Source of the DNA: a candidate division WOR-3 bacterium
GTDB lineage: Bacteria > SDB-A
DNA: 53,937 bases
Assembly: GCA_016929715.1 (NCBI GenBank)
Contig: JAFGIG010000114.1
Span: 1 to 53,937 of the forward strand
Direction: 5' to 3'
In this document: in pieces, positions 1 to 51,359 of the stretch
Numbering within the stretch: the first letter of the stretch is position 1
Layout of the letters: each line of letters begins with the position of its first letter
Program-made: the position numbers and the translations under genes
The notes under the pieces: generated by a model
Database searches by the model: none
Seen by the model: the letters and a program-made list of their open reading frames with translations, nothing else
Told to the model about the DNA's origin: nothing

Positions 1-12
1 AAAATTATGAAA

Positions 13-85: not shown

Positions 86-102
86 TTATTTTTCCACTTC
101 TG

Positions 103-2502: not shown

Positions 2503-2518
2503 TTTTGCCGTCTCGAGC

Positions 2519-15973: not shown

Positions 15974-15982
15974 AACCCTTGT

Positions 15983-28795: not shown

Positions 28796-30139
28796 ATGAT
28801 TATGAACGGCAAGATAAGGATAATGCTTGCCGAAGACGATCCTCATATGATGAAAGTAATGGGGGACGTTTTCAGCGGTAAAAAATATGATATTGCCAGG
28901 GAAGAAAACGGATCTGAAACTCTTGCGAGACTGCTTGATGAAGATTTCCACATTGCAGTTCTCGACGATCAGATGCCCGGGGTAGGCGGTATAAATATAT
29001 GCAAAAGGCTGAGGGACGACCATAGAAAAAAAAGTATTCCCGTCATTCTTCTGACTGCGACGACGAACCCGGCCGAAAGGATTGAGGGATACCGCGCTGG
29101 AGCCGACGCTTGCCTGTCTAAACCTGTAAACAGCGAAGAATTGCTCGCAGTCGCCGAAAATCTTCTATATCAGAGATATGACGACGAATTTGTTCTGAAC
29201 AATGTTAAAGGGTTCGGAGGATCGGTCGCTAGTTTTCCGGTTGTGGACCTTCTCCAATTCATGGAAATGGGCGCCAAGACCGGATCTCTTGAGATAAAGA
29301 GCACGGAAAAAAATGCTGTAGTCTTTTTTGACAAGGGAGTCATAGTCCACTCAGAATCTGGCAGGCTTAGAGGCAGTAACGCGATATATCACATAATCAG
29401 CTGGCAGGACGGTATATTTGTCTATACCCCGGACAGGACTCCTCCGGAGGTCACTGTCAGGGAAAATCTCTCTCATCTGCTTCTGGAAGGTATTAGACTG
29501 ATGGATGAAGAAGCAAGAGACAACACCGCAGTAAAAGAACTCACGCAGGCACTTTTGCAAGTAGAGACATCGGCCGAATCAAAAGTCCTGAAAAAAATGG
29601 AAGACCTGTCGAAAAAAATAGCTCTCGGAGAAAAGAGAATTTTCGAGATACTCGTTATAGATATCTGGAAGGACAATAGAAAAGAAATGCTCGACTTTTT
29701 CATATCGAGCATACTCAAATACATAGGCAGAGAAATTCGCGTCTCAAAGAAAGACAGTGCAATATCGAGTTTTGCAAAACTCGACGTGATGAAGGATTTT
29801 TCAATAGACATAGTGGTCAGCAGCGGGAAGAGAAAATTCAATCTGCTCTGGCAGGTTTTTCTCGAACAGGCTAATGCCCTCGTGGTATTCGTGGATCCAA
29901 CGAACGAGGAGGCGAGAAACGACGGAATTGAGATAGCGAGGAGATTCAACAGCTACAGGGCGCAGATACCCTGCGCGGTGGTTTCACCGGTAGGACAGAA
30001 AGCCGCGGGTCTTCCTTTCGAAAACCCAAAATGGTTTGCAGTTCCGGAATACAACCTGATTGACCTCGAAGAGATTTTTCAGTTTATATTCGACTTCACA
30101 CAGGAGCATTTCCTCGACGAGATAGAAATGAGAAGATGA
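28796..30139 (+). CDS. Response regulator: receiver + PATAN (DUF4388) + C-terminal degenerate Ras-like domain
   Basis: REC: MLAEDD, VLDDQMPGVGG, LLTATT, CLSKP. DUF4388: FPVVDLLQFMEMGAKTGSLEI...VVFFDKGVIVHS...AIYHIISWQDGIFVY. The C-terminal ~170 aa show a small-GTPase-like strand/helix pattern but no P-loop. The start may be 28802. Confidence 0.7.
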   Translation: MIMNGKIRIMLAEDDPHMMKVMGDVFSGKKYDIAREENGSETLARLLDEDFHIAVLDDQMPGVGGINICKRLRDDHRKKSIPVILLTATTNPAERIEGYRAGADACLSKPVNSEELLAVAENLLYQRYDDEFVLNNVKGFGGSVASFPVVDLLQFMEMGAKTGSLEIKSTEKNAVVFFDKGVIVHSESGRLRGSNAIYHIISWQDGIFVYTPDRTPPEVTVRENLSHLLLEGIRLMDEEARDNTAVKELTQALLQVETSAESKVLKKMEDLSKKIALGEKRIFEILVIDIWKDNRKEMLDFFISSILKYIGREIRVSKKDSAISSFAKLDVMKDFSIDIVVSSGKRKFNLLWQVFLEQANALVVFVDPTNEEARNDGIEIARRFNSYRAQIPCAVVSPVGQKAAGLPFENPKWFAVPEYNLIDLEEIFQFIFDFTQEHFLDEIEMRR

Positions 30140-31098
30140 AAAAAATCTTCATACTCGCCACCGGCGGGACAATTCAGATGAAAAAAGATCCCGGCAGAGG
30201 CTTGATACCTGCTTTTTTGGGAGAGGAGTTGATGAGGGGTCTGGCTTTCCCTGATGAGGAATTTATATTGGAATTCGACGAGTTTTCGAATGTTCCCAGC
30301 CCGTGGATAAAACCTGAAGACATGATGAAGATTTCAGAAAGGATAAATTCTCTAACGCTCGAATGCGACGGGATAATAATCACTCACGGCACAGATACTC
30401 TCGAAGAAACAGCTTATTTTCTCTCTCTTACTTATTCAGGCGATAAACCGGTCGTCATGACCGCCGCTATGCGGGCTCCTCCGGATCTCGGTATAGACGG
30501 ACCCAGAAACATCTATGATTCAATAAAAGTCGCGCTCGAAAACGCATCCCGTTCACGGGGGGTCATGGTGGTGATTAACAACAGTATTTTTTCACCCAGG
30601 GATGTAGCTAAAATATCAACATCAAATTTAGCCGCTTTTACTTCGCCTGAATACGGTTTATTGGGGACAATAGACGAAAAAGTGATATACTTTTCCAAAA
30701 CGGTAGAGAGGGAGAGCATTAAGGCTTCTTCTTTGGCTTTGCCCATTGACCTTATACAGGCGTATTCGGGAGCCGATTCAAGGTTGATAAGATATTCAGT
30801 GAATTCCGGAGCTCAAGGCATCGTCCTGGAGTCTCTCGGCAGGGGTAACGTCCCCCCCGGAATGCTCGAAGGAATAAAATACGCCTTGGATAAAGGACTT
30901 CCTGTTGTGGTGTCAACGAAAGTTCAAAACGGCAGAGTCGCGCCGACATACGGATACGAGGGCGGAGGCAGGAATTTGGCAGACCTCGGCTGTTATTTTG
31001 CGGGTAATCTCAGGGCGAATAAAGCGAGAATAAGACTTATGCTCGCTCTCGGGACAAAAGAAAAAGAAATTAGGAGGTATTTTGAAAAATTTATTTAA
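30136..31098 (+). CDS. L-asparaginase
   Basis: ILATGGTIQM (catalytic Thr motif) and ITHGTDTLEETA, over 320 aa. ATGA overlap with the upstream gene. Confidence 0.85.
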   Translation: MKKIFILATGGTIQMKKDPGRGLIPAFLGEELMRGLAFPDEEFILEFDEFSNVPSPWIKPEDMMKISERINSLTLECDGIIITHGTDTLEETAYFLSLTYSGDKPVVMTAAMRAPPDLGIDGPRNIYDSIKVALENASRSRGVMVVINNSIFSPRDVAKISTSNLAAFTSPEYGLLGTIDEKVIYFSKTVERESIKASSLALPIDLIQAYSGADSRLIRYSVNSGAQGIVLESLGRGNVPPGMLEGIKYALDKGLPVVVSTKVQNGRVAPTYGYEGGGRNLADLGCYFAGNLRANKARIRLMLALGTKEKEIRRYFEKFI

Positions 31099-32014
31099 GA
31101 TAACCCTCGCGTTAACATTTTCCGCGTTGTTCGCCACAGGAGTACTGAACTCTCTGACCCACACTGTCAAACTCGGTGAAACGCTCACCTCTATTTCAAG
31201 AATGTATAGCATTTCGGTCTCTGAAATTAAATCCGCCAACAATCTCTCGTCTGATATGATAGTCGAGGGGCAGAGACTCACGATTCCTTCGCAATCTTCA
31301 GGAAGTCAAAATCTTTACGTAGTCAAAAGCGGCGAGACCCTGTCTGGGCTCGCGTCGAGGTTTCAGACAACAGTCAGGGCTATTAAAAACGCGAACAATC
31401 TTTCCACGGATTTTATCAGAGAAGGCCAGCGTCTTGTGATCCCCGGAAGATATCCTCCCCCTCAGCAGACGACTACACAGCAAAGACCTCCTGTGAATGT
31501 AAACATTGTTATTCCCAACGAAGAGAAAAAAGCGGGGACTGCCATTATCGAATTTTCCGTGGTTTTCCCGGACCCTTCTGTCAGCATAAGACACTCTGCC
31601 GCAGCAGAAGTGGTCATTCAAGAAAAACCTATCCTGGCTACCGAGAAAACAGAGCTGATAAAATCCATACTGAACAGCGCTATTTCATATCTGGGTTCTC
31701 CTTATGTTTACGGGGCTACAGGCAACGGAGGTTTCGACTGCAGCGGTCTGGTGTTCAGGGTTTTCGCTGAAAACGGTTTGGATCTCCCCAGAACAGTGAC
31801 TGACATGGAGAAAATCGGCATTGAAGTCCCAAAAGAATCTCTGGCGCCCGGAGATCTTCTGATATTCAACGATCCAAAACACGTAGGGATTTATCTCGGG
31901 TCCGGAAGATTCATTCACTCCTCTTCATACAGAAACAGGGGAGTGATAATCAGCTCTCTCGACAGAGAAAGTTATTCTACCCGCTATGTTACGGCAAGAA
32001 GGGTCGTTTACTGA
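31082..32014 (+). CDS. LysM(x2)-NlpC/P60 peptidoglycan endopeptidase
   Basis: Two LysM repeats (HTVKLGETLTSISRMY..., YVVKSGETLSGLASRF...). C-terminal NlpC/P60 with GFDCSGLV and HVGIYLG..FIHSS. TTG start. Confidence 0.85.
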   Translation: MKNLFKITLALTFSALFATGVLNSLTHTVKLGETLTSISRMYSISVSEIKSANNLSSDMIVEGQRLTIPSQSSGSQNLYVVKSGETLSGLASRFQTTVRAIKNANNLSTDFIREGQRLVIPGRYPPPQQTTTQQRPPVNVNIVIPNEEKKAGTAIIEFSVVFPDPSVSIRHSAAAEVVIQEKPILATEKTELIKSILNSAISYLGSPYVYGATGNGGFDCSGLVFRVFAENGLDLPRTVTDMEKIGIEVPKESLAPGDLLIFNDPKHVGIYLGSGRFIHSSSYRNRGVIISSLDRESYSTRYVTARRVVY

Positions 32015-32030
32015 ACATTCGCGTTATTTG

Positions 32031-32059
32031 TTGATTTATTTAATTACTGGGACTATCAT
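32031..32059 (+). promoter_or_regulatory. Sigma70-like promoter candidate (TTGATT-N17-TATCAT)
   Basis: Hexamers at 32031-32036 and 32054-32059, about 45 nt upstream of the ATG at 32104, which has a GGAGGA Shine-Dalgarno. Confidence 0.45.
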
Positions 32060-32103: not shown

Positions 32104-33030
32104 ATGAAAAAAACAGGGTTGTTCGTTCTTATAGTCTTTTCTTCAGTAGCCGTCAATGCTTCACCGTTTCTGCAAGGGAATATGGTTGATATTCCCAATG
32201 CCTACATAATGCCTCATTCCAGCATTCAGTTTTCGACGGTTTTTACGGTTTACAGTCAGGACTTTGCATCGGCGGGAGCCAGTTACGAGACTTTTTCGCA
32301 ATACATTTTCGGAGCCAATCTCACTTTGGGGTTATATGACTGGTTCGATATCGGCGGAGGTTATCTCGGAACAGATGTCTGGACCGGATACGTAAAAATG
32401 AGATTGTTAAGGGAAAGCGAGAAATATCCTGCGGTCGCCATAGGAGTTCAGAACATATCTTCGCACAGGAAAATGTCGGAGTTCGGCAGGCATTCCCTCG
32501 ACTATTACGGTTACAACCAGAATTTTGCCTATTTCGGTGTTTTCTCAAAAGACATTTCGTATTATTTCAGGAATATTCCTGTGATAGTCACATTAGGTTT
32601 GGGTGGCGGAAGATTTCAGGGAGAGAGGGAAAGGTCGGAACCATGGAAAGGTATTTTTTTGGGAATGGAGTTCAGGCCGATTAAAAATTTGCGTTTCGTC
32701 ACTGATATCGACGGCAGGGATTGGAACTTCGGAACCGTTTACAGGGCTAACGACAATCTTGAGCTTGTTTTGGCATGGATCGAAATAGAGCAAACTTTCG
32801 GAGTCCGTTACAGTTCGAGGAATGTCCCGACGGAACAGCAGAAACTTGTCATGGGAGCTCAGTTCAGTTTCGGTCCGTTTTTCGGAAGCAAAGCTCTTTC
32901 AGTCCGCCGACAGAGAGAACTCGAGATAATGAGCAATTATCAGAGAGAACTCGAAGAGATAAGGAGAAAAAGAGAAGAAGCCGAGAGAGAACTCGAAAGA
33001 CTGCGCAGAATTCTCGAAGAAAGTCAGTAG
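32104..33030 (+). CDS. Signal-peptide beta-rich envelope protein with charged C-terminal coiled coil
   Basis: Signal peptide (VAVNA/SP). Alternating aromatic/Gly beta-strand-like pattern suggests an outer-membrane beta-barrel or YjbH-like fold. The last ~45 aa are RRQRELE...RELEEIRRKREEAERELERLRRILEE. Confidence 0.5.
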   Translation: MKKTGLFVLIVFSSVAVNASPFLQGNMVDIPNAYIMPHSSIQFSTVFTVYSQDFASAGASYETFSQYIFGANLTLGLYDWFDIGGGYLGTDVWTGYVKMRLLRESEKYPAVAIGVQNISSHRKMSEFGRHSLDYYGYNQNFAYFGVFSKDISYYFRNIPVIVTLGLGGGRFQGERERSEPWKGIFLGMEFRPIKNLRFVTDIDGRDWNFGTVYRANDNLELVLAWIEIEQTFGVRYSSRNVPTEQQKLVMGAQFSFGPFFGSKALSVRRQRELEIMSNYQRELEEIRRKREEAERELERLRRILEESQ

Positions 33031-33041
33031 AGAAGAAGAAT

Positions 33042-34586
33042 ATGTTTTGGCTGATTTTAGCTTTAATCGCTCAAGCAGAGGATCCCACGGAAACTCTTTC
33101 GACAGACAGGATTTACGAAGTGACAGACTCTGTCAAAGAAGATATTATCTATGAGAGGCATATTCTTACAGATCTCTACGCCGAAATTGAGCAACTGAGA
33201 CTTGCCGTGGAGATACCTCCGCCGATAAGCTCTGCCGATTCTTTATACCTCAGAGGAGCGCTTGGGTGGGCTAAGGTTACATACCAAAACATCATAGACC
33301 ATCCAATGTCTCCCGACAGCATTAAGCAGAGGGCTTTTTATATGTATTGTGTAATATCGTATCAGCAGTCAAACTACAAAGAGAGCGTAGATAAATCCCA
33401 CGAGTTTCTGAGAATATACCCGGGCAGTGCTTTTTCGGACAATATCTATATGATATTGTCTCTCTGCCACTTTTCCATGGCTGATTTCATAAAATCGAGA
33501 GAATACTGTTCCAGAATATCTTCATCTTCACCCCAGTTTCCTTTCGCGTTGTATATAAGCGCCATTTCCTATTTTCAGGAGAATAAAAACACCGAAGGAA
33601 TAGGAATGGCTAAGGAAAAACTTAACGAAATGGCTTTCGGCATCTATTCGGGATACTTAAATGACGAATGGAAGTCACGGGCTCTGATGAGCCTGGCTCA
33701 ACTGCATTATGAACTCGGAGAACTGCAGACTTCATATGAATATTACGAACTCGCCAAAGATAAAGGCGCGGACAGAAACGCCGCGGATTTCGGAATAGCA
33801 TGGATTTATATAAAAGTAGGACTTCTCGACGAAGCGCTCGAAATTATTGAAAACCTCGAAAGACGCGATGACATTGAAAAAATCTACACTGATGTTCAGC
33901 TCGCCAAAGCGGCGATTTTGATTCAGAAGGAGTCCTTCGAAAAAACATTTGACATATATTCCGGAATTCTCAAAAGATACTCGGTGAATTACAGTTACGA
34001 AAACGTAATAGACGCGGCTCTAGAAAACGCCCTTTCCTCTTCCGTCGTAGAAGACGTCAGTGCGACGAGAAACCTGATGGCGAGTCTTGACAATCTCATT
34101 GCGGTATCGAGACTGAGAGGCAGAAATGATGTCGCCGACAGTCTGGAAAAGATAAAATCCAATCTCAGATATCAGCAGGAAGTGCTCAGTTCAATTGGGT
34201 TCCAGATAAAACAGTCCGACAGAGCGGACCTTGAGGTTTTGAAACAGAATATCACTCTCATGATTCAGGAAGAAAGGGCGAGGACGGACCTTCTCCTTAT
34301 GGACATAAACTATCTTGAAAAAAAACTCCCTGCGCAGTATTTGGGAGCGCTCGACAGCATTAAGTTTAAACTGACAGGAATTTCTCTCATGCTCGCCGAC
34401 ATTGAAAACCAGATAGGCGCCAGGGGAATAACCGAGGCGACGAATTGGCTTATTCAAGCCCAATACGGTGCGGGAGTCACTTTTTTCATGATGTATAAAG
34501 ATGTCGAATCACAGATTTCTGAAATTAAATCGAGGATACAGAGGATTAGATATGAAATGGAAGAAATTCAGGAACCGGAAAGATAA
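33042..34586 (+). CDS. TPR-repeat protein (514 aa)
   Basis: I chose the ATG at 33042 (MFWLILALIAQA...); the 32775 start overlaps the previous gene in another frame. Repeated A/Y/L helical-hairpin pattern, with a coiled-coil-like C-terminus. Confidence 0.65.
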   Translation: MFWLILALIAQAEDPTETLSTDRIYEVTDSVKEDIIYERHILTDLYAEIEQLRLAVEIPPPISSADSLYLRGALGWAKVTYQNIIDHPMSPDSIKQRAFYMYCVISYQQSNYKESVDKSHEFLRIYPGSAFSDNIYMILSLCHFSMADFIKSREYCSRISSSSPQFPFALYISAISYFQENKNTEGIGMAKEKLNEMAFGIYSGYLNDEWKSRALMSLAQLHYELGELQTSYEYYELAKDKGADRNAADFGIAWIYIKVGLLDEALEIIENLERRDDIEKIYTDVQLAKAAILIQKESFEKTFDIYSGILKRYSVNYSYENVIDAALENALSSSVVEDVSATRNLMASLDNLIAVSRLRGRNDVADSLEKIKSNLRYQQEVLSSIGFQIKQSDRADLEVLKQNITLMIQEERARTDLLLMDINYLEKKLPAQYLGALDSIKFKLTGISLMLADIENQIGARGITEATNWLIQAQYGAGVTFFMMYKDVESQISEIKSRIQRIRYEMEEIQEPER

Positions 34587-37458
34587 AACCGGCCGCAAGT
34601 TTTGTTTTTTGCTGTGTGCTTCAGCGGTTTTCTTTGCCGTCTTTTCGTGCGGACCGGGAAGGCTGGACCCTGATCAGGAGCTTCTTCGTCTGGAAAGCGA
34701 AAAGAGAAACCTCGAGCTTCTTCAGGATGAATACATGGAAGCCACCGCGCTTTATCTTGAAAACCTGCTTATGTTTTATCCCAACAACCCGTTCGGAGCT
34801 GACGCAGCTCTGAGGCTTTCCGAGATTTACAGAATCAGAGCAAAAAGCGAATATGAAAACCAGCTCGACGCCTGGATGGCAGGAGGATTTTCAGGGCTTG
34901 AACCTTTCCCGGACTACAAAAAGGCAAAGGATACATATATACAGGTAATATCAAAATACGAAGGGGTTGACACTGTATCGGCTATTGAGGCGTATTACGC
35001 CCTTGCCTCGATACTCGAAGAAGAAGGCGATGTAGATTCGGCGAGTATAATGTATAGGAAACTTGTCGAAAGGTATCCGGGAAGCTTAAGGGTTCCCGCC
35101 GCCTGTTTCAGGCTTGGTTTGTATTACTTCAATTTCAGACACGAAGGACTCGGCAAAGTGGATTTGGCTCTTAATTATTTTGACAGAGTCATGGATTATC
35201 CTAACGACCCCAACTACGACAAAGCAGTATATATGATAGGATGGCTCAACAGAGTAGCGGGACCTGATTCGATACCGGCTTCCATCACGCATTTTCTGTT
35301 CCTTCTGGAGATGTCCGCTGAAGAAGGCAGAACGGAGCTTGCCGACGAAGCGGTCATGTATCTCGGGTTCGATTTTTCAGAGTTGCCCAACGGAACCCTC
35401 AGGCTCCGGAGGGTCTTGACAGCGCTTTCCGAGATGCCAAAAGGAGACGAAGTGGTCCTCAAGCTCGCCGAAACATTCAAAGAGAAAGTAGATTATCCGA
35501 AAGCAATTGACGCATACAATACATATCTCCAGATGTATCCTTCTAGCCCGAAAGCGCCTTTTGTCCTGCGAGACCTCGCATCGCTCTATGCTGAAGTGGG
35601 CGACATGACCCTCGCCGACGCAACCATGGACAGGCTCGTTGACAATTACGGCAGGGACTGGCAGATGACTCTTGCCGCCGGAGAGGATTCTGCGGAGATT
35701 TCGTCAACCGACTCTCTAATAAGGGAAGCCATGCTCTACACTGCGGGTATTCACCACAGAAAAGCCCTGCAGGAAGGCACTTACGAAGAATGGGCAACAG
35801 CCGCGGAGAGATATAGAAATTTTATCCAACAGTATCCGGAAGACCCCGAAGTTTACGGCTTGCGGTTCGCGCTTGCGGAAGCTCAGTATGAAATGGGCAA
35901 ATTTCTCGACGCGGCTAATAACTATACCGCCGTTTCGATGGATAATTCCTATGATTCTCTGTCCCTTCCTGCGGCTTATGAAGCAGTCACTTCTTTCAAT
36001 CAGTGGTATTCAGCCGACAGCACTTCTGGAGAACGCCAGGACAGTATGGTTCTCGCGGCTGAAAGATACATGGATATCTGGAACAAAAGACCCGGCACCG
36101 ATGTATCCGATCCGGTTAACATATCCATGTCCATCGGAAAAATACTCTATGAAGGCGAAAGATACGAAGAGTCGAAAAACTGGTATATGAAGGTTGTTGA
36201 CAATTTCCCTTCATCGAGTGCTGCCGCTTCGGCTTCAGCCATGATCGCCCAGAGCTATTATAATCTCGGAGATATGTCTTCTTCTGAAACCTGGTTTTTG
36301 AGAGCCTCGGCCCAATCTAACGATACGACTCTGGCAAGGCAAGCAGCTGTCATAGCCTTTCAGTCGGCATCAAATATTTCTGAGACTGACACTATGAAGG
36401 CTTTGACTTTTCTTGAAGTCCATAAAAAATATTCCGAACGCGAAGAGGGCAAAAAATCTTTATTCAACGCCGGCGTGATATTTTTCAACGCAGGTTACGA
36501 AGAGAGGGCCAAAGAAGTTTTCAGATCCTATATCCGAAACTACGATTACCAGGACGACAGCCTTCTGTATTCGGCTTACATGAATCTCGCGAACATTGCC
36601 ATATCCAGAGCTGAAAGAGCCGACAGCTCCGGGACCGGTAGCGCCGGACTTTGGAATGAGGCGGCAAGCGCCCTCGAATCGTTTACGGCGAGATACCCAA
36701 CGTCTCAGGGAACGAAAGAAGCTGTGTTTTGGACGGGAAAAGCATTTTTAGGCGCGAGAAATTTCAACGGAGCCCTGAACTCATTCAAACGAGTCGCTGA
36801 AGGGACGTCTTTTTCTGAGGAGATTCACTATCAGGCGCTTCACAGACTTGCCCTGTCCTACGACAGCCTCGGGTTGATATCCGATGCAGACAATACAAGA
36901 AGGAAAATCCTGAATGATTATTTGGAAGGCGGAAGAGCCGCGGGGATACTTCCTTACGAATTCGAAATGGACATGGTGAGAACTGTAGAGATTGATTTTG
37001 AGAGAATAAAAGGGACGGATCTGCTCTGGCCGATAGACAGAACTTACCCTCCTTATGATATGGAAATGAAATCAGTGGCGGAAAATCTGACAAGAATCGC
37101 AGGTCTGAAAGCGGGTGTTTCGACAATTGCGTCACTCTACCTTCTCGGCCAGTGCAACGAAGATTATGCGAGAGCTTTCAGAGAGGCTGAATACGATCCT
37201 CTTTGGACGGAAGAAGAGCAGATATTTTTTCAAGAACAGCTCGAGGAGCAGGCTCTGCCTTTTGAGGATGCTGCCGTTCAGTTTTATCTTGCTTCCAAGC
37301 AGACTGCCGAAAGCAATGCCCTGATTGATAACAGATGGTATAGGGATGTCTTGAAAGCCTTAGATAACCTCAAACGATTTAGGCCGGATTTATTTCCCGA
37401 TTCGGAGATTTATGATAATATCGATGAAAATGAGCAAGAAACCAGTCCACCGCAGTAA
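34552..37458 (+). CDS. Large TPR-repeat lipoprotein (969 aa)
   Basis: MKWKKFRNRKDK...FFAVFSCGPG is a signal peptide with lipobox. GAGGA Shine-Dalgarno precedes the ATG at 34552. Many TPR-like units (e.g. AIEAYYALASILEEEGDVDSASIMYRKLVERYPGS). Confidence 0.7.
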   Translation: MKWKKFRNRKDKTGRKFCFLLCASAVFFAVFSCGPGRLDPDQELLRLESEKRNLELLQDEYMEATALYLENLLMFYPNNPFGADAALRLSEIYRIRAKSEYENQLDAWMAGGFSGLEPFPDYKKAKDTYIQVISKYEGVDTVSAIEAYYALASILEEEGDVDSASIMYRKLVERYPGSLRVPAACFRLGLYYFNFRHEGLGKVDLALNYFDRVMDYPNDPNYDKAVYMIGWLNRVAGPDSIPASITHFLFLLEMSAEEGRTELADEAVMYLGFDFSELPNGTLRLRRVLTALSEMPKGDEVVLKLAETFKEKVDYPKAIDAYNTYLQMYPSSPKAPFVLRDLASLYAEVGDMTLADATMDRLVDNYGRDWQMTLAAGEDSAEISSTDSLIREAMLYTAGIHHRKALQEGTYEEWATAAERYRNFIQQYPEDPEVYGLRFALAEAQYEMGKFLDAANNYTAVSMDNSYDSLSLPAAYEAVTSFNQWYSADSTSGERQDSMVLAAERYMDIWNKRPGTDVSDPVNISMSIGKILYEGERYEESKNWYMKVVDNFPSSSAAASASAMIAQSYYNLGDMSSSETWFLRASAQSNDTTLARQAAVIAFQSASNISETDTMKALTFLEVHKKYSEREEGKKSLFNAGVIFFNAGYEERAKEVFRSYIRNYDYQDDSLLYSAYMNLANIAISRAERADSSGTGSAGLWNEAASALESFTARYPTSQGTKEAVFWTGKAFLGARNFNGALNSFKRVAEGTSFSEEIHYQALHRLALSYDSLGLISDADNTRRKILNDYLEGGRAAGILPYEFEMDMVRTVEIDFERIKGTDLLWPIDRTYPPYDMEMKSVAENLTRIAGLKAGVSTIASLYLLGQCNEDYARAFREAEYDPLWTEEEQIFFQEQLEEQALPFEDAAVQFYLASKQTAESNALIDNRWYRDVLKALDNLKRFRPDLFPDSEIYDNIDENEQETSPPQ

Positions 37459-37491
37459 CAGCGGCGAAACTGATTTAACAGGCGGGTCTGT

Positions 37492-37905
37492 ATGAAAATC
37501 TTTATTTTTACCTTGACGGTGCTGACCGCGACGGCTGTCTTTGCGCAGTCGATTCCGAGCAGTATTCTCGAAATCGAGGAAATTGAAATACGGGGAACAG
37601 CGAGAGAACCCCTTGTAATAAACATAGCGGCTACTGCTAAGATTGATTTTTCAAATTTCATTATTTCTCAAAGTTTTTCGAGGGAAATCTTAAACCAGGT
37701 ATTTCAGGCTAGAACCGAACTCGGCATGATAGGCCGCACGCAGGTCTCGAGACCTTTTTCCAAGACCTGTCTTTTTTTAGGCGCAGGCGGGACGGCCGCG
37801 GGAATTTATCTGATGTCGAGTGGAGGAAAAGCCGGACCCTATTTCCTCGCTGCAGGAGGGACTTTTCTCGTCGGGTCCGGAATATTTTATTTGTCAGGAA
37901 AGTAA
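37492..37905 (+). CDS. Small signal-peptide protein with Gly-rich C-terminal TM hairpin
   Basis: Signal peptide (TAVFA/QS) and C-terminal LFLGAGGTAAGIYL...YFLAAGGTFLVGSGIFYL. Sits directly upstream of the ExbB-like gene. Confidence 0.5.
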   Translation: MKIFIFTLTVLTATAVFAQSIPSSILEIEEIEIRGTAREPLVINIAATAKIDFSNFIISQSFSREILNQVFQARTELGMIGRTQVSRPFSKTCLFLGAGGTAAGIYLMSSGGKAGPYFLAAGGTFLVGSGIFYLSGK

Positions 37906-37921
37906 TATACATTAAAGGAGG

Positions 37922-38551
37922 TTGGTTTTGTCCGCTTTCGTCCAGTTTTATAAAAATGGTGGATGGGCTATGCATTTTATCGCACTAGCCGCTTTTGTCT
38001 CTCTCGGATTGATTATCGAAAGGATGATATTTCTGTTTAGATCGGGTATAAATGCCGATAAATTCCTTCGCTACGTGACTAAAAAATTGAGAGAGGGAGA
38101 TTACACCGGCGCGATAAGATACTGCGACAGCGAAGGCAAACCTCTGTCTAAAATTATAGGTGCAGGCCTGAGAAACTACAAAGGGGATATTAGGGAAATG
38201 CAGAACGCTGTAGACGAGGTCGGATTGGCCGAGATACCGAGACTCAACAAACGCCTCAACTACCTTCCCGTTCTGGCGCAAGTCGCGACCCTTCTGGGTT
38301 TGCTCGGAACGATAGCCGGCTTATTAAAATCGTTTGGCGCCCTTTTGACCGCAAGCGCTTCTACAAGAACGCTCGAGTTGATTCAAGGAATATCGATCGC
38401 CCTGAATACAACTTTCTTCGGTCTGACAGTCGCGATACCGGTAATGCTGCTTCATTCTTTTCTTCAGTCCAGAGCCGACGGTATCGTTGACGATATCGAC
38501 GAGTATTCAGTGAGAATAATGAATATGCTTCAGGATATAAAGAAGGACTGA
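37922..38551 (+). CDS. MotA/TolQ/ExbB-family proton channel protein
   Basis: N-terminal ...NGGWAMHFIALAAFVSLGLIIER and C-terminal ...GISIALNTTFFGLTVAIPVMLLHSFL are characteristic. TTG start behind AAGGAGG; the in-frame TTG at 37928 is equally possible. Confidence 0.85.
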   Translation: MVLSAFVQFYKNGGWAMHFIALAAFVSLGLIIERMIFLFRSGINADKFLRYVTKKLREGDYTGAIRYCDSEGKPLSKIIGAGLRNYKGDIREMQNAVDEVGLAEIPRLNKRLNYLPVLAQVATLLGLLGTIAGLLKSFGALLTASASTRTLELIQGISIALNTTFFGLTVAIPVMLLHSFLQSRADGIVDDIDEYSVRIMNMLQDIKKD

Positions 38552-38554
38552 CGC

Positions 38555-39232
38555 ATGTCTTTCGCGGTATCAAAAGCCGGAAGAAGAAGTCATAAACAAA
38601 GAGGCGTGGACGTAACAACGGTTTTGAACCTTTTTATGATTCTCATACCGGCGCTTCTGACGAGTTTTCAGATAGTTCAGACATCCATACTGAATCTTGA
38701 ACTCGCCGGATTAGGGGCGGTTGAAGGCGAAAATTACATTCCAGCGCCCACTTATTTCATGACTACAATTCTCGCAAGGACAAAAGACGGCAGAATAGTC
38801 TGCGAATTTTCTCGATACAGATACGTAGGAGGAGAATCAATTGCTGTTGACACCATGATAGAAAAGTCTCGGTATTTCGACGGCTGGGGCGAGATAGATA
38901 CTCTTTTAACCCTCAAACTCGACTCACTTTTCTTTGAAGCTAAAAAAGAAGTCAAATCCTTTCTCGACACGACTCCTGAAGAGCTAATAGCTCCGAACTG
39001 GAGAGAGATAAAAAATTTCATTGCCCAGAATCCCGCTGAGACCGAAGTCATGGACAGCGTCATAAGCAGATTAAATCTTTTCATACTGATATCCGTAGAC
39101 AGCATAGGGGAAGCTGTGAGCGGAGAAAGCGTCAACCTCAACGACCTTGTGAGTTTTATGAAAATATCCCAAAAATGCGGTTTCCAGAACAATTATCTTC
39201 AACCTCCCCCGTGGTGGCCAACAGGGTCATGA
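38555..39232 (+). CDS. Divergent ExbD/TolR-like protein (TM Asp replaced by Asn, enlarged periplasmic domain)
   Basis: N-terminal basic stretch, then VDVTTVLNLFMILIPALL...LNLELAG, which aligns with the ExbD INVTPLIDVMLVLLIFFM...V.LP pattern. 225 aa versus about 135-200 for typical members. Confidence 0.55.
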   Translation: MSFAVSKAGRRSHKQRGVDVTTVLNLFMILIPALLTSFQIVQTSILNLELAGLGAVEGENYIPAPTYFMTTILARTKDGRIVCEFSRYRYVGGESIAVDTMIEKSRYFDGWGEIDTLLTLKLDSLFFEAKKEVKSFLDTTPEELIAPNWREIKNFIAQNPAETEVMDSVISRLNLFILISVDSIGEAVSGESVNLNDLVSFMKISQKCGFQNNYLQPPPWWPTGS

Positions 39233-39246
39233 AAAGGAGCTGAAAA

Positions 39247-39858
39247 ATGCCAAAAGACATTGACTCAATAGGGGAGAGTATCTCTAAGTGGTTTCCGAAA
39301 CCGCCGACAAAGAGAAAAATGATGTTCAGAAAATCCATATCTTCGCTTAAATCATCTAATTCTTCCAAAGGACCGAAATCCGACAGGGAGACTCCTGTCC
39401 TTCAGCTGACTTCGCTTATAGACATGTTCACTATTATTCTCATATTTCTTTTATTGAATTTTTCAACAGATCCGAATCAGAGCCCGCCGCCGATGGACGT
39501 CAACCTTCCGACTATTATTTCTGAAGAAGAAATCGAAGAGAAAACTCATGTGGGAGTTAATGTGGTGGCAGCCAATAACTACTCTATTACGCTCGACCAG
39601 ACTTCAATTATTGAGTCTGCAGAGGAAATGCCCGTCAAAACGGACACTTTTGTGGCACCTTTGCTTGAAAAACTCAGAGAGACATACGAAATAGCCATTC
39701 AGACAGCCGAACTCAACCAGATTGACCCGGATTCAATAAAAGTCATTATCCAGGCAGACAGCCTTACGAGTTACAACCTTATAACGCAGATAGTCAATAC
39801 CTGCACGATGGCAGGTTATAAAAAAGTATCGGTCATGGTTTTAGCGCCGAAGTTCTGA
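39247..39858 (+). CDS. ExbD/TolR-family protein
   Basis: LQLTSLIDMFTIILIFLLL (conserved Asp present) followed by MDVNLPTI. AAGGAG Shine-Dalgarno 8 nt upstream. Confidence 0.8.
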   Translation: MPKDIDSIGESISKWFPKPPTKRKMMFRKSISSLKSSNSSKGPKSDRETPVLQLTSLIDMFTIILIFLLLNFSTDPNQSPPPMDVNLPTIISEEEIEEKTHVGVNVVAANNYSITLDQTSIIESAEEMPVKTDTFVAPLLEKLRETYEIAIQTAELNQIDPDSIKVIIQADSLTSYNLITQIVNTCTMAGYKKVSVMVLAPKF

Positions 39859-39876
39859 AATCGTAAAGGGGGAAAA

Positions 39877-41730
39877 ATGGAAGAGATCAAACTTGCCGTA
39901 GTGGTCCAACAGCAGGGCAAACGCAGGCATTTCGTCGTCGAAAAAGATCTCGTTTCCATCGGCAAAAGCGAAGACTGCGAAATAGTGGTCTCGGATGACG
40001 ATCCTGACATACCGCAAAAACATGTCCTGTTCTCATACAACAGCGTCGGGAATTCATACGAACTGAAGATAAAGCCGGATATCTTCAGAGGCTGGATTAA
40101 AATAGGTGAAGATGAAATTTCTGTCAAGGACATCGCCCTTCGCGCGAAAGTAAGGAAAGAGAATGATCAGATAGTGCTCCCTCTGGAAACTACAGGCAGA
40201 GGAAGAATCCAATTGGGAGGCACCGTTATAGGCTACGGTTTCCAGTCTTTCGCTGGATCTTCACAAAAAAAACCCCAGAAAACGGTTTCTGCGGCTTCTG
40301 TCGGGTGGGTTGAAGTAATCCAGGGCGGGAGCCTGAAGAAATACCTCGTCAAAAAAAATCAGGTGTTTCTTGCGGGGAACACGGTCAGGTCGGCTGTCAA
40401 AGAGCCGACTATAGAAAAAGAACTTAAACTGTTTTATTCTGCCGGCGGAAGTTATTCCTTGACCATAATCCCCGGTTTTTACGGCGTTATCAGCAAAGAC
40501 GGTGATCGACTGCGCATAGACGACGATTTTTTTGCAAGGAGCGGCACTGTTGAAAAAACTATAGATATCTCGGCAGGAGACAGAGCGGATCTTAAATTTA
40601 AAAACAGCTTTATAATCAGGCTCGGAGTAAGGGAAGAAGAGATTCGACGAGAAGCCGTCAAAACACCTCTGGCTACTCCTCCCGCCCCGGAAGATAGACC
40701 TCAGCCTATAGAAAAAGAACGGGGAAAACCCAAATGGGAGCGTTTTAACAACAGACCCCATGACAGATTGACTGTTGGCGAACACTCAAAGGACAGGAAG
40801 GTATTCACCATATTTGATTTTACCACCGCTCTTTTCTGGATTTTTTGGATTTTATACGCTTTCACAGTCAAAGTGGAGGCGCTTAACCTCGATCTAGCTA
40901 CCGCTGAAGAAACCCTAAAAAGACTTGAAGAGAATGATTTGCTAGATGTTTCACTCACTGAAGACATAGAGAGCTTGAGGAGAGGAACTCTCGGTGTAGC
41001 GACAACCGGTGAAGGAACTTCGGAAGGGACGGGTTCGGGCTCGGGGACAGGAACTGGCAGCGGTTCGGGATCAGGAAGCGGAGCCGGAGGGCCGGTCGGT
41101 CAGGGGGGGCAGACTTCGAGGGTGGCAAGAGGGTTGAGAGTTCTCGGTGTAGGTTCGGGACCATCGACGGGTCCTATGGGCCTCGGCGGGGGTGACGCGA
41201 GCATTCAGGATCTTCTCGCCGGAGGAGCCTCGCTTTCAGGTGTTTCGGGAGGCATGGCTTCAGCGGCCGGTGGTTCAGGAGGTCTTGGCGGGGGCGTTAC
41301 AGGAACCGTGGGAGTCACTGGAGGAACTGATATTTCAACGGGTCCCGCGACAGGCGGAGATCTTCAGCATCAGAGGACAGCGGGAGTCAGAGGTGGAACT
41401 ATAGCCGACCTTTCAGGTTCAGCGGCGACGTCCGGAGCAAGGGATGCGGCGGATGTCCGCAGGGCTATAGTCAGGTATCAGGGAAGGCTTAAATATTTCT
41501 ATGAAAGAGAACTCGAAGTGAACCCTGCGCTTCAGGGGAAAATCGTAGTCAGGATAACCATCTCGGAAGAAGGATATGTCTCTAATGTTTCTATGGCCAG
41601 CAGCACGCTCGGTTCGCCTTCGCTTGAACAACAGATATTATCGGCTATAAGCGGCTGGACTTTCGGAGCCATTGACCCGGGCGGAGGTTCTTTCACATTT
41701 ACAGTTCCTTTTAATTTCTACAGCCAGTGA
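39877..41730 (+). CDS. FHA-like(x2) / single-TM / Gly-Ser-rich / AgmX-PglI-type TonB-like C-terminal domain protein
   Basis: N-terminal VSIGKSEDCEIVVSDD..IPQKHVLFSY (degenerate FHA-like) and a second similar module. TM FTTALFWIFWILYAFTV. About 115 aa of G/S/T-rich linker. C-terminal RYQGRLKYFYERELEVNPALQGKIVVRITISEEGYVSNVSMASSTLGSPSLEQQILSAISGWTFGAIDPGGGSFTFTVPFNF matches the AgmX/PglI C-terminal (TonB_C-like) pattern. Confidence 0.75.
   Translation: MEEIKLAVVVQQQGKRRHFVVEKDLVSIGKSEDCEIVVSDDDPDIPQKHVLFSYNSVGNSYELKIKPDIFRGWIKIGEDEISVKDIALRAKVRKENDQIVLPLETTGRGRIQLGGTVIGYGFQSFAGSSQKKPQKTVSAASVGWVEVIQGGSLKKYLVKKNQVFLAGNTVRSAVKEPTIEKELKLFYSAGGSYSLTIIPGFYGVISKDGDRLRIDDDFFARSGTVEKTIDISAGDRADLKFKNSFIIRLGVREEEIRREAVKTPLATPPAPEDRPQPIEKERGKPKWERFNNRPHDRLTVGEHSKDRKVFTIFDFTTALFWIFWILYAFTVKVEALNLDLATAEETLKRLEENDLLDVSLTEDIESLRRGTLGVATTGEGTSEGTGSGSGTGTGSGSGSGSGAGGPVGQGGQTSRVARGLRVLGVGSGPSTGPMGLGGGDASIQDLLAGGASLSGVSGGMASAAGGSGGLGGGVTGTVGVTGGTDISTGPATGGDLQHQRTAGVRGGTIADLSGSAATSGARDAADVRRAIVRYQGRLKYFYERELEVNPALQGKIVVRITISEEGYVSNVSMASSTLGSPSLEQQILSAISGWTFGAIDPGGGSFTFTVPFNFYSQ
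41008..41360 (+). repeat. Coding low-complexity Gly/Ser/Thr tract (imperfect GGN-AGY/ACN repeats)
   Basis: Encodes GEGTSEGTGSGSGTGTGSGSGSGSGAGG...GGSGGLGGGVTGTVGVTGG inside the 39877..41730 CDS. The DNA is an imperfect short-period repeat. Confidence 0.6.
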
Positions 41731-42722
41731 GAAAATGTCTCCTTTTCGCCGCTTTGACGGCTTTTTGCTTGATCCCTGAAAGTATTTCCAGTTCTGTTTT
41801 TATCCTCATTAAACAGGAAGAAATGCCGATTGAGCGTGTTCAGGGTTTCATTGATTCAATAGCAAATACAGGAATTGACGGAATCCTGGTAGACGCATAC
41901 AAAGACGGGCTGACTCTCTTTCCTTCCGAACGTCTTGATTTTGCTTTTTCCTATGATATTCTCGAAGAAATAGTCTATTGCGCCGGTCTCAGAAAATTAC
42001 TTGTATTTTTTAATCTCGACCTTTTCAGGGTTTGGACCCGGCATGTTCCGCCGACGAGCGCTTCACACGTATTTCACCTTCACAAGGACTGGCTTCTAAA
42101 AGATGCGGCAGGAAACAGCATGAGCTCTTTTTCAATTGAAGATCTCTTGTCGAAACACGCAATAGATGGTTATTATGTGTCTCCGTCAAATAGGGAATAC
42201 GCTGTTTTACTCTATGAATTAATGACTGAACTCACAGGAAGATACCTTTATTCCGGAATTGTAATATCCGGTATTTGTGTTCCCGGGCAGGAATGGTCTT
42301 ACGACGATTATACCATGACTGAATTTATGAGGTTGTATTACGTCAATCCGAATACGGATAGATTAGCCCCTTCGATCAGGGAAGAGTGGTCCGGTTTCAA
42401 CCAAAAGGCGGCGGAAAATTTTTTAAAAAGATTTCTCGCAACATCTGAAATAAAAGGTTTTCTCGCTGTCAGAGTTGAAAACGATTCGGATTTATCTCTA
42501 TCGCTGATCAGATCCGATATCGCGGATTTTTTCATACCGGATTCAAACTGGATAAAAATTAGGAATGTCTCTCCTAAAGATCTTGCAGACATAATTAAAA
42601 CAAGGGGAGACAATGAATTTATTGTTTTGGACGACGCCAGAGACGCCTTGAGAATAATCGGCTACAAAGAGATGATAAAAATCGCCATGGAATGGATCAG
42701 GGGAGAGGGGGCCAGAAGATAA
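41727..42722 (+). CDS. Hypothetical secreted protein (possibly glycoside-hydrolase-like TIM barrel; weak)
   Basis: GTGA start/stop overlap with the upstream gene. Signal peptide MRKCLLFAALTAFCLIPES. No firm domain. Confidence 0.45.
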   Translation: MRKCLLFAALTAFCLIPESISSSVFILIKQEEMPIERVQGFIDSIANTGIDGILVDAYKDGLTLFPSERLDFAFSYDILEEIVYCAGLRKLLVFFNLDLFRVWTRHVPPTSASHVFHLHKDWLLKDAAGNSMSSFSIEDLLSKHAIDGYYVSPSNREYAVLLYELMTELTGRYLYSGIVISGICVPGQEWSYDDYTMTEFMRLYYVNPNTDRLAPSIREEWSGFNQKAAENFLKRFLATSEIKGFLAVRVENDSDLSLSLIRSDIADFFIPDSNWIKIRNVSPKDLADIIKTRGDNEFIVLDDARDALRIIGYKEMIKIAMEWIRGEGARR

Positions 42723-43092
42723 ATCTCGCGCAGTTTTCGCACCTATCTACCGATAGGTGGTTTTTAACTCGCTGAAAAACTTCCGCAGGAATCCTGTTGG
42801 AACAACCTACACAATAGCCTTCCCCTCTCTCTTCTCTCGCAGGAACTATAGCCCTCGGTATCAGATCGTCTTTGTATTTTTTCATCAGTCTTAGATATTC
42901 GCGTTTGAGATCCGAAGGAAGTTTTTTAAGAAGCTTTTCTTTTGTATTCTGAAAATTTACAACGGTGCTTTCGTCGAAGCTCATCCCGATTTCTTTAAGT
43001 TTTGAAAGATATCTTTCGTTTGTGAGTTCGTTTATATAAGTTTCAGCGTTGTCAATAGCAAGCAGAATCTCAAGCCATTCATTCATAGGCAT
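42697..43092 (-). CDS. Coiled-coil plus C4 zinc-ribbon protein (COG1579-like, short)
   Basis: C-terminal CVGCSNRIP...CENCARF zinc ribbon after a helical region. Overlaps the convergent gene by 26 nt. Confidence 0.55.
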   Translation of the reverse strand: MPMNEWLEILLAIDNAETYINELTNERYLSKLKEIGMSFDESTVVNFQNTKEKLLKKLPSDLKREYLRLMKKYKDDLIPRAIVPAREERGEGYCVGCSNRIPAEVFQRVKNHLSVDRCENCARFIFWPPLP

Positions 43093-43615: not shown

Positions 43616-44608
43616 TCAATGTTTTTCTTTTCTGCCTCTGAATAAAAGTATGTATAGAAAAAATGGAGCTCCCAAAAGAGCTGTGACGACGCCGACAGGC
43701 AATTCGGCCGGTTGAAGGGTTTTTCTGGCGGCTATGTCGGCGAACAACAGGAATATTGAACCGGAAAAGAAAGAACCCGGCAGAACGGTTCTGTAGTCGT
43801 GTCCTGAGATTTTCTTCTCGATGTGAGGGACAATAAGTCCGACGAATCCAATCGGCCCGAAAAAAGCCACCGAACCCGCGACGAAAACGCTCACGACAAT
43901 AAAAGAAATCTTCTGCAGAGATTTGACATCCACGCCTCTTGAAAGGCTGATGTCGTCGGCAAAATATAGGTTGTTGTATGCGTTCATTTTAATAAAGGCG
44001 AATAAAACAAGAGGCAGAGAGAATACAGCCGAGAAGAGGGCTGTCTTCCAGCTGGAAAACGCCAGAGAACCGGTTAACCACCTGTCGAGGATTCCTGCTG
44101 TGAAAGGGCTTGTGACAAACCTCATGAGAGTAATTACAGAACCGGCAAAAATGCTCAATGTGATTCCGGATAGAACGAGATCGTGAATTGAAAAAGTGTT
44201 TTTTCTCGCGGATAAGGCGTAGATGAAAAACAGTGTCGTAGCTGAAAAAAACAATGAAGAAAAGATTCCGGAAAGCGGAATAAAAGACAGATACGTTGAG
44301 GCGAGAAAGGCGCCGAGAGCTGAAACACTGCTTATTCCGAGAGTGTATGGCTCGACAAGGGGGTTTTTCAATGTGCTCTGCAGAACAGCCCCGGAAAGAG
44401 AAAGGGAGCCGCCGAGAATGAAAGCTGATATTGCGCGGGGGAGTCTGTAACTTAAAAAAATATCTTTTAATGGTCCGTCTCCGAAAAGGGCGGAAAATTT
44501 TATGGGGACAGCTCCTATGAAAGGTGATATGCAGAGAAGCCCCAAAGCGAGAGCTGCGTGAATTAAAAGATTTGTTAAAAACTTTTTTTTAGTGAGAATG
44601 GTTTTCAT
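43616..44608 (-). CDS. FecCD-family ABC permease (iron-siderophore/cobalamin type)
   Basis: 330 aa with about 9-10 TM segments and typical FecCD blocks (PRAISAFILGGSLSLSGAVLQS, GPIGFVGLIVPH). Confidence 0.85.
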   Translation of the reverse strand: MKTILTKKKFLTNLLIHAALALGLLCISPFIGAVPIKFSALFGDGPLKDIFLSYRLPRAISAFILGGSLSLSGAVLQSTLKNPLVEPYTLGISSVSALGAFLASTYLSFIPLSGIFSSLFFSATTLFFIYALSARKNTFSIHDLVLSGITLSIFAGSVITLMRFVTSPFTAGILDRWLTGSLAFSSWKTALFSAVFSLPLVLFAFIKMNAYNNLYFADDISLSRGVDVKSLQKISFIVVSVFVAGSVAFFGPIGFVGLIVPHIEKKISGHDYRTVLPGSFFSGSIFLLFADIAARKTLQPAELPVGVVTALLGAPFFLYILLFRGRKEKH

Positions 44609-46264: not shown

Positions 46265-46791
46265 ATTTCTATACCGGTTCTCGCCTTGACGCCTTCACTG
46301 AAATAGTGCTTCACTTCTTCCATAACGGTAACGAGGTCGGCTCTTTTAATGAATTCTTCCGGAGCGTATCTTCCCGTGAAAAGAAGTTCGGTTTTGTAGG
46401 GTCTTTCCTCAATAAGAGAAATAACCTTGGGTATTTCTATCAGGCCGAAATGCGCGGCAATGTTGATTTCGTCAAGTATGAAAAGGTCGAAAGATTTGGT
46501 TAAAATTTTTTCCTTTGCTATTTCAAGTCCAGTTGCGGCTCTTTTATAATCCTCTGCTGATGGAGCAGAAAGATCTATAAAGTCCCTTCCGCCGTATAAC
46601 TCGAAAAAAATCGAATCCTCGAACCTCTCAAGAGAAGTATGTTCTGAATATCTGAGCCCTTTTAGAAAATGGCCGATATAAATTTTTAGACCGGCTCCCG
46701 CGGCTCGCAGGGCGAGTCCTATCGCCGCCGTTGTCTTTCCTTTGCCGTTGCCTGTGTAAATCTGAAAAAGACCTTTTGCCATATCTTTCAA
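46261..46791 (-). CDS. cobO: Cob(I)yrinic acid a,c-diamide adenosyltransferase
   Basis: GLFQIYTGNGKGKTTAAIGLALRAAGAG...FILDEINIA, the CobA/CobO/BtuR pattern. ATGA overlap with the binding-protein gene. Confidence 0.85.
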   Translation of the reverse strand: MKDMAKGLFQIYTGNGKGKTTAAIGLALRAAGAGLKIYIGHFLKGLRYSEHTSLERFEDSIFFELYGGRDFIDLSAPSAEDYKRAATGLEIAKEKILTKSFDLFILDEINIAAHFGLIEIPKVISLIEERPYKTELLFTGRYAPEEFIKRADLVTVMEEVKHYFSEGVKARTGIEM

Positions 46792-51351: not shown

Positions 51352-51359
51352 GGGGAAAC

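Follow-up and report, generated by a model that had tools for sequence, protein, structure and literature searches.

Which envelope machine is encoded by the nine-gene operon at positions 32104 to 42722 of contig JAFGIG010000114.1, a 53,937-nucleotide stretch of DNA (hereafter the window, in its full length) from a candidate division WOR-3 bacterium? Its products include tetratricopeptide repeat (TPR) proteins, a TolQ/ExbB-type channel subunit, two ExbD/TolR paralogues and a TonB-like protein, an assembly that a preliminary description of the same DNA had read as an Agl/Glt-like core module. Our analysis supported this reading, with corrections of detail. The operon most probably encodes an Agl/Glt core complex of the Fibrobacter succinogenes type, that is, a trans-envelope machine driven by the proton motive force and not a TonB system for nutrient uptake. 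The locus is a further example of the core complex described in 2011 and not a novel class of system, and what it adds is incremental, namely a GltF-type protein in the core, an Asn/Asp asymmetry between the two ExbD/TolR paralogues, tandem forkhead-associated (FHA) domains and an outer-membrane barrel with a helical tail.

Gene order of the operon and of related loci

The tight packing of eight or nine co-directional genes was confirmed, with nine open reading frames (ORFs) on the + strand between 32104 and 42722 that are separated, from gene 1 to gene 9, by 11, -35, 33, 16, 3, 14, 18 and -4 nt. The features of the operon are as follows (AF2, AlphaFold2).

32031-32059, + strand: sigma-70-like hexamer pair TTGATT-N17-TATCAT upstream of gene 1 (weak evidence)
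32104-33030, + strand: gene 1, 308 aa, signal peptide, predicted outer-membrane beta-barrel with a charged C-terminal helix (AF2 model, Foldseek)
33042-34586, + strand: gene 2, 514-aa TPR protein, GltC-like (weak TPR matches, NF033756, position)
34552-37458, + strand: gene 3, 968-aa TPR lipoprotein, positional counterpart of GltD (strong TPR matches)
37492-37905, + strand: gene 4, 137-aa secreted small protein, GltF/CglF-related (family alignment, motif)
37922-38551, + strand: gene 5, 209-aa TolQ-like proton-channel subunit, AglR-like (PF01618)
38555-39232, + strand: gene 6, 225-aa divergent ExbD/TolR paralogue, ExbD1 (hhalign, orthologues)
39247-39858, + strand: gene 7, 203-aa ExbD/TolR paralogue, ExbD2, in AglS-like position (PF02472)
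39877-41730, + strand: gene 8, 617-aa GltG-like transducer (NF033768, AF2 model, Foldseek)
41727-42722, + strand: gene 9, 331-aa signal-peptide protein (sub-threshold GHL6/GHL10)
42740-42759, + strand: terminator-like hairpin 3' of gene 9, with an 8-bp stem followed by a T-run, between convergent genes

The gene order agrees with that of the core cluster of F. succinogenes S85, Fisuc_1892-1897, when the two are compared by listed order, assignment and size. Table S3 of Luciano et al. 2011 assigns Fisuc_1892 (746 aa) to GltC, Fisuc_1893 (1292 aa) to GltD, Fisuc_1894 (212 aa) to AglR, Fisuc_1896 (164 aa; a homologue of MXAN_6860) to AglS and Fisuc_1897 (308 aa) to GltG, skips Fisuc_1895 and lists no GltE for Fibrobacter. 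The window likewise has, in a single cluster, a TolQ-like gene and behind it two genes of the TolR/ExbD type, which is a feature of the core complex.

Related loci are abundant, since a metagenome scan of the JGI collection returned at least 595 matching stretches, and 80 fetched loci were searched with profiles built from five loci. In four distant homologues (L002, L004, L007 and L089), a large TPR protein, a second one of ~950-1000 aa and sometimes a third are accompanied by a small protein, a MotA_ExbB protein, two ExbD proteins and a TonB_C-like protein. The order TPR-TPR-(TPR)-small protein-AglR-like-ExbD1-ExbD2-GltG-like recurred in about 40 metagenome loci with a GC content of ~30-68%, and it was shared by nearly all loci that had enough flanking sequence and an Asn/Asp pair of ExbD paralogues (see below). 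Synteny at a single locus across unrelated lineages, a further feature of the core complex, was thus observed. Recurrent adjacency to TonB-dependent receptors was also examined, by a survey of 132 proteins encoded in the flanks of related loci, and no receptor family was present among the families matched by at least two proteins; Wza-type Poly_export was matched by 3 of the 132. L002 (1-2450 and 11176-18785) carries a STAS-domain gene between its two ExbD paralogues, and genes for Wza, Wzc and glycosyltransferases directly downstream of its GltG-like gene. The Agl-Nfs machine of Myxococcus xanthus is linked to a Wza-exported spore coat (PMC3858216), which the Wza/Wzc neighbors of L002 may recall by analogy, an association that we regard as weak.

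Assignment of the TPR and small proteins of the window rests on family-level and positional evidence; both TPR proteins are assigned to the periplasm. The 514-aa protein gave weak TPR matches, reached 22 bits (E 4.8e-5; cutoff 450) on the GltC model NF033756 and matched no GltE model. It resembles GltC more closely than GltE, and GltE, which had been named among the TPR parts, has no counterpart in the cluster. When the first and third TPR proteins of related loci were pooled, 23 of 35 matched the GltE model (best E 9.9e-38) and nine the GltC model (best E 1.3e-18). The following protein was indeed a TPR lipoprotein, with a VFSC lipobox and Cys33, but its length from the Met at 34552 is 968 aa and not the 969 aa given at first. 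It scored 87 bits on TPR_6 and 137 bits, in five stretches, on YbgF-type repeats (YbgF cutoff 90.1), and YbgF/CpoB and BamD TPR models matched all 25 members of this family of large second-TPR proteins. None of them matched a GltD-named NCBIfam model, which the library apparently does not hold, and the assignment to GltD was therefore made by position and size.

Besides a signal peptide, the 137-aa protein has a conserved strand-like motif, IEIRGTAREPLVINI, at nt 37582-37626. In 43 of 69 loci, a 40-column profile of this motif had a match immediately before the AglR-like gene, and it found only one other match in 857 kb searched in six frames. The family aligns over its full length with a CglF-like protein of locus L088, with which it shares the motif, the spacing and a second block, (S/N)F(I/L)PxxhES(V). 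The CglF model NF033764 matched five of 38 family members at E <= 0.01, including the L088 protein (67.9 bits; cutoff 90), and the IEIRGTAREPLVINI-type motif profile scored the L088 protein only marginally; for the window copy, no NCBIfam match was obtained and the NF033764 cutoff of 90 bits was not reached. CglF is, we presume, the same protein as GltF, and the GltF counterpart that had been proposed for its small size is now related to it by family alignment and motif as well. The copies of the window and of its close relative L005 end in a Gly-rich hydrophobic tail (LFLGAGGTAAGIYLM...FLVGSGIFYLSGK, residues ~100-137) that is missing from the other members, many of which end in a short ...PF or ...W. 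Luciano et al. 2011 described gltF as restricted to Myxococcales and Bdellovibrionales, and an extra core gene as having no homologues there. From our alignments, a GltF-type protein seems to be part of the core. In a model of the M. xanthus machine, the sheet in the C-terminal domain of GltG is extended by a strand of GltF (PMC11761067), and by analogy the IEIRGTAREPLVINI motif may play the same strand-addition role here.

The GltG-like transducer and the motor proteins

The C-terminal domain of the 617-aa protein (residues 523-614) scored 81.6 bits on the AgmX/PglI model NF033768 (cutoff 40), against 41.5 bits on the generic TonB model TIGR01352 and 26.2 bits on PF03544 TonB_C, in agreement with the AgmX/PglI type first ascribed to it and not with a generic TonB domain alone. 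The best equivalog-type match of the whole protein was GltG (NF033760), and the protein is, judged by its sequence, GltG-like rather than a GltG equivalog. All GltG-like proteins scanned from related loci scored 75-107 bits on NF033768 and 60-150 bits on the GltG model, several of the latter matches spanning the region from the transmembrane (TM) helix to the C-terminal domain. Their N-terminal regions come in three lengths (almost none, ~140-170 and ~270-345 residues), and the longest class includes both the window protein and GltG of M. xanthus.

For comparison with Myxococcota proteins, L088 was our only stand-in for true Glt proteins. Its positions 221-3238 encode a CglF-like protein of 91 aa, a GltG-like protein of 654 aa (P0125) and a CglE-like protein of 228 aa, a trio that we read as the Myxococcota-type gltF-gltG-gltH arrangement. 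P0125 scored 302 bits on NF033760, and its C-terminal domain is 40% identical to that of the window protein over 88 aa, two Cys positions of the Myxococcota-type domain being occupied by Tyr and Ile in the window protein. No sequence similarity was detected between the N-terminal regions of the two proteins.

The FHA-like N-terminus that had been noted in the 617-aa protein was sub-threshold by sequence (E 0.079), but found support in a structure model, which points to two such domains. The AF2 model of residues 1-345 comprises beta-rich domains at 1-125 and 140-254 (blockwise predicted local distance difference test [pLDDT] values of ~80-87), a disordered stretch and a TM helix. In a Foldseek search of the PDB with this model, the top match was the tandem FHA region of EssC (E 1.5e-4, 278 aligned columns), and below it came single FHA domains by the dozen, at probability 1.00. 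No repeat was revealed when the two N-terminal halves were compared by BLASTP, and the tandem-FHA reading therefore rests on the structure model. A TM helix or hydrophobic segment at 310-331 and a linker at 371-520 with 51 Gly and 4 Pro in 150 residues complete the protein. This architecture agrees with that published for M. xanthus GltG, in which FHA domains at 1-114 and, centrally, at 190-329 precede a TM helix at 330-348, and a disordered segment then leads to a TonB-like domain at 544-640 (Cambillau and Mignot, PMC11761067).

The presence of cytoplasmic FHA-like domains suggests an input to the machine. Phosphothreonine is normally contacted by an Arg and a Ser of the FHA consensus. At these positions the first FHA-like domain has IGK and QKH, which makes binding of phosphothreonine doubtful. 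In another locus, L049 (3546-11741, 67% GC), a GltG-like gene, whose product has a 270-residue cytoplasmic region, is directly preceded by the gene for a PknB-like Ser/Thr kinase of 1210 aa and followed by two genes of the AglR type and two for ExbD proteins with the Asp. This arrangement is a possible regulatory link between kinase and FHA domain.

The assignment of the 209-aa protein as a MotA/TolQ/ExbB channel subunit was borne out by 86 bits on PF01618 MotA_ExbB at 37922-38551. It scored 58 bits on TolQ (cutoff 221) and 28-37 bits on the ExbB models (cutoffs 135-206), and its alignments with TolQ and ExbB of the PDB were equally poor (E ~6e-6 to 9e-6). Channel homologues fell into two groups, a few close relatives at 72-97% identity and many at 38-48% identity, and those linked to a module matched at E < 1e-40.

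The second ExbD/TolR paralogue, ExbD2 (203 aa), matched PF02472 ExbD with 54.9 bits and keeps the TM residue Asp59 (codon at 39421), an Asp that was present in all 47 distinct sequences of its family. The TolR model gave 23.8 bits for the motor proteins (cutoff 127.3). Profile searches returned no Pfam or NCBIfam match for ExbD1 itself (225 aa). Since its family aligned with the ExbD2 family over the full length in a profile-profile comparison (hhalign, 98.2%, E 5.5e-14), and its orthologues in L002 and L004 matched PF02472 with 52-62 bits, we consider it a divergent ExbD/TolR paralogue with inserted periplasmic segments. The pair of paralogues first described is thus retained, directly by profile for the 203-aa protein and through family alignment and orthologues for the 225-aa protein.

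ExbD1 has Asn25 (codon at 38627) where the channel Asp is usually found. Across 52 classifiable loci, the residue at this position was Asn in 39, Ser or Gly in four and Asp in nine, and the loci with Asp in both paralogues were mostly devoid of TPR genes and of the small-protein motif. Both AglQ and AglS of M. xanthus have been reported to carry a TM Asp in a 2022 review (PMC9389320). If this statement holds, the Asn/Asp asymmetry is a genuine difference from M. xanthus.

First and last genes of the operon and the flanking region

Gene 1, previously described as beta-rich with a charged tail, was modeled as an outer-membrane barrel followed by a long helix at residues 262-307 (AF2, pLDDT 83.9, predicted template modeling score [pTM] 0.76). 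Foldseek retrieved the 12-strand outer-membrane barrels KdgM and NanC (TM-score normalized to the target, 0.55-0.66), a designed 12-strand barrel and FapF. Its family comprises 101 representative clusters among 1.84 billion representative proteins, and in one relative the coiled coil is followed by an OmpA domain, so that the tail of gene 1 is placed in the periplasm. We had considered gene 1 as a fixed part of the machine, and dropped this idea when three homologues from other loci turned out to have no such module beside them; gene 1 is perhaps a lineage-specific recruit or a mere neighbor. In L002, two beta-rich proteins with charged C-terminal tails, paralogues of each other, are encoded upstream of the TPR genes. 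BLASTP found no similarity between either of them and gene 1, and the likeness is therefore one of architecture only.

Gene 9, the start of which overlaps the stop of the GltG-like gene by 4 nt, encodes a signal-peptide protein of 331 aa with sub-threshold matches to GHL6/GHL10 (E 0.0076-0.27), possibly a glycosyl-hydrolase-like TIM barrel. It was found only in the close relatives L001, L005 and L006. Gene 1 and gene 9 both accompany the module in close relatives alone, and these have the entire neighborhood in common.

The TTGATT-N17-TATCAT site described as promoter-like is indeed present at 32031-32059. However, 20 sigma-70-like sites were counted in the region, compared with 15.7 +/- 3.9 in shuffled sequences, so that the site is no better than chance, and it was dropped as a meaningful promoter. 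Directly upstream of the operon, the gene at 31082-32014 has two LysM domains and an NlpC/P60 domain by profile search, as first noted; the link to the complex then suggested is seen only in close relatives that share the whole neighborhood. Two genes upstream of the module, a response regulator (28796-30139, + strand) combines a DUF4388/PATAN domain with ~190 C-terminal residues that have no family match. The same order is found in L005, and the protein could regulate the module, the sole link being this proximity in close relatives. Just upstream of the response regulator lies a gene for a DUF58/VWA-domain protein (27825-28715, + strand), the gene with which the L005 locus also starts; the DUF58/VWA family is usually found in MoxR/Bat-type operons.

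Downstream of the operon, genes for a FecCD permease, an ABC ATPase, a Peripla_BP_2 protein and a CobA/BtuR adenosyltransferase (43616-46791, - strand) form a B12-type ABC importer, with no TonB-dependent receptor in the window. As a sign of TonB uptake, this importer was dropped, given that no receptor was found and that the linkage is not conserved beyond close relatives. A membrane H+-pyrophosphatase (6937-9207, - strand; PF03030, 872 bits), unrelated to the operon, offers a second route to a proton gradient.

Proteins with C-terminal sorting domains of the type IX secretion system (T9SS) are encoded at 15758-17704 (+ strand; LTD and CHU_C) and 51252-53882 (+ strand; eight FG-GAP repeats and Por_Secre_tail), and a further candidate with a weak FlgD_ig match at 7-1644 (+ strand). 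The nearest public relatives of the locus carry the labels Desulfuromonadaceae or Desulfuromonas sp. SDB, and this taxonomic assignment looks doubtful because of the T9SS-sorted proteins in the window. A search of a genome collection with the 617-aa protein had a single return, a 94%-identical contig of a metagenome-assembled genome labeled Desulfuromonadaceae, and word-indexed searches, whether with the full-length protein or with the Gly-rich linker removed, yielded only two to three relatives, candidate selection being swamped.

Alternative readings, proposed mechanism and relation to known systems

Several observations weigh against the assignment of the operon to the Agl/Glt core. The 617-aa protein reached 70.5 bits on the GltG model, in two stretches, where the cutoff is 650, and its linker is Gly-rich and not Pro-rich. 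The TPR and small proteins of the window match Glt models weakly or not at all, and a GltE-like (third TPR) gene is absent from the cluster. The ExbD pair combines Asn25 with Asp59, whereas AglQ and AglS have been reported with Asp in both (PMC9389320). The gene-1 homologues in the three loci examined (L090, L091 and L092) do not adjoin Agl/Glt-like genes.

We weighed the assignment against three other explanations. It is unlikely that the operon encodes a divergent Tol-Pal-like system for envelope integrity or division, in which the 617-aa protein would be TolA-like, the TPR proteins CpoB/YbgF-like and gene 1 an anchor, together keeping the outer membrane on the wall. Of the named models, TolQ (58 bits) and TolR (23.8 bits) score highest for the motor proteins, yet both scores lie far under the equivalog cutoffs (221 and 127.3 bits). 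Similarly, the 137 bits of the 968-aa protein on YbgF exceed the cutoff of 90.1, but they are the sum of generic TPR_6 repeats in five stretches. A relative of gene 1 with a peptidoglycan-binding OmpA domain and the NlpC/P60 hydrolase gene directly upstream would suit such a system. However, TolB and Pal are absent in or beside the cluster, here and in the related loci for which gene tables were read, the C-terminal domain is of the AgmX/PglI type, and neither the FHA-like domains nor the GltF-related protein has a Tol counterpart. Moreover, M. xanthus has a separate Tol-Pal system beside Agl/Glt (PMC3169522).

An ordinary ExbB-ExbD-ExbD-TonB energizer, with accessory TPR proteins and with its TonB-dependent transporters encoded elsewhere, is less probable still. 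It would account for the Pfam TonB_C and ExbD matches above cutoffs and for the B12- or siderophore-type ABC importer (FecCD, ABC ATPase, Peripla_BP_2, CobA) 1 kb downstream on the opposite strand, although this importer lies beside the module only in close relatives. The ExbB equivalogs, at 28-37 bits, stay well below their cutoffs of 135-206, the AgmX/PglI model is ahead of the generic TonB models by at least 40 bits, ExbD1 lacks the Asp, and the linker is Gly-rich rather than Pro-rich. As stated in the preliminary description, no TonB-dependent receptor, TolB, Pal or MglA is visible in the window; the first three were absent from 40 window ORFs scanned against Pfam, and no receptor recurs in the 132 flanking proteins. 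The least probable explanation is a complete Myxococcus-type gliding apparatus active in this organism. The core parts are homologous to Agl/Glt proteins, as it would predict, but neither the parts specific to Myxococcales and Bdellovibrionales (GltA/B/H/K, GltI, GltJ and CglB) nor an MglA-like GTPase or AglZ were detected among the window ORFs scanned. Furthermore, Luciano et al. 2011 argued that the core alone does not drive motility, and any gliding could use another machine given the T9SS-sorted proteins.

For the Agl/Glt core complex that we favor, a mechanism can be outlined by analogy with TolQR/ExbBD structures and with the M. xanthus model. Five channel subunits would surround an ExbD1/ExbD2 heterodimer, and proton flow via the single Asp of ExbD2 would drive a cycle of conformational change or rotation. 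The GltG-like protein would dock on the channel with its TM helix, and perhaps with the membrane-proximal FHA-like domain as well, and from the channel force may be passed through the flexible linker to the C-terminal domain. This domain would in turn bind the GltF-like strand and the TPR scaffold reaching the outer membrane, where the gene-1 barrel with its C-terminal helix may be the contact in this lineage. In M. xanthus, the interaction of AglR with GltG and the proton dependence of Agl function have been shown experimentally (PMC3169522, PMC3858216). The output is probably mechanical work on an envelope or surface component, for example the anchoring or moving of a surface polymer or the tethering of the outer membrane, and the machine is unlikely to drive gliding alone.

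More tentatively, and as a possibility that we hold with some doubt, TPR-linked core modules may constitute a class of 5:2-type envelope motors that is both distinct and widespread, with an obligate heterodimer as axle, one protonatable Asp and a conserved Asn in the partner. The output of such a motor would be handed by a C-terminal domain of the GltG type to a GltF-type strand motif, and this motif would be ancestral to the system and not an invention of Myxococcales or Bdellovibrionales. In the present lineage, the coiled-coil-tailed barrel and the glycosyl-hydrolase-like protein would complete the module, whose target would be a surface glycan or the tethering of the outer membrane. Core modules are frequent in metagenomes (at least 595 JGI stretches), are present in a lineage with T9SS-sorted proteins, and usually include the GltF-related small protein and the Asn/Asp-asymmetric TolR pair. 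The organism studied here is uncultured. Culturable carriers such as F. succinogenes and marine gammaproteobacteria would make it possible to test whether one protonatable Asp is enough for the motor, whether the small-protein motif binds the GltG C-terminal domain, and how loss of the cluster affects a surface polymer or the integrity of the outer membrane.

Set beside known systems, the operon shares with ExbB-ExbD-TonB the 5:2-type motor superfamily and an output domain of the TonB_C fold with partner binding by strand addition. It differs in having no linked receptors, in missing the ExbB cutoffs, in its additional TPR and small proteins and in the asymmetry of its ExbD pair. With Tol-Pal, it has in common a TolQR-type motor run by protons, a bitopic transducer in which a long linker leads to a small C-terminal domain, and CpoB-like TPR repeats. 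In contrast to Tol-Pal, the window has no TolB or Pal, its TolR pair would be heterodimeric, its transducer bears FHA-like domains and an AgmX/PglI-type C-terminal domain, and the equivalog cutoffs are missed.

The likeness to the Agl-Glt and Agl-Nfs machines of M. xanthus extends to a TolQ-like channel with two different TolR-like subunits, to the architecture of GltG (640 versus 617 aa), to a small GltF-type protein and to TPR proteins with signal peptides or lipoprotein signals. The agl/glt genes of M. xanthus are dispersed, whereas a single operon holds the module here; GltA/B/H/K, GltI, GltJ, CglB, MglA, AglZ and GltE of the M. xanthus machine have no counterpart in the window, and the linker is Gly-rich and not Pro-rich. 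Compared from the published table, the F. succinogenes core has the same gene order and similar sizes (212 versus 209 aa for the TolQ-like protein), lies at one locus and is without GltE. Its GltG, Fisuc_1897, has 308 aa, versus the 617 aa and two FHA-like domains of the window protein, and the window operon has, in addition, a gene for a predicted outer-membrane barrel at its start and one for a secreted 331-aa protein at its end. Fisuc_1895, the gene skipped in the table, corresponds in position to the divergent, Asn-bearing ExbD1 of the window.

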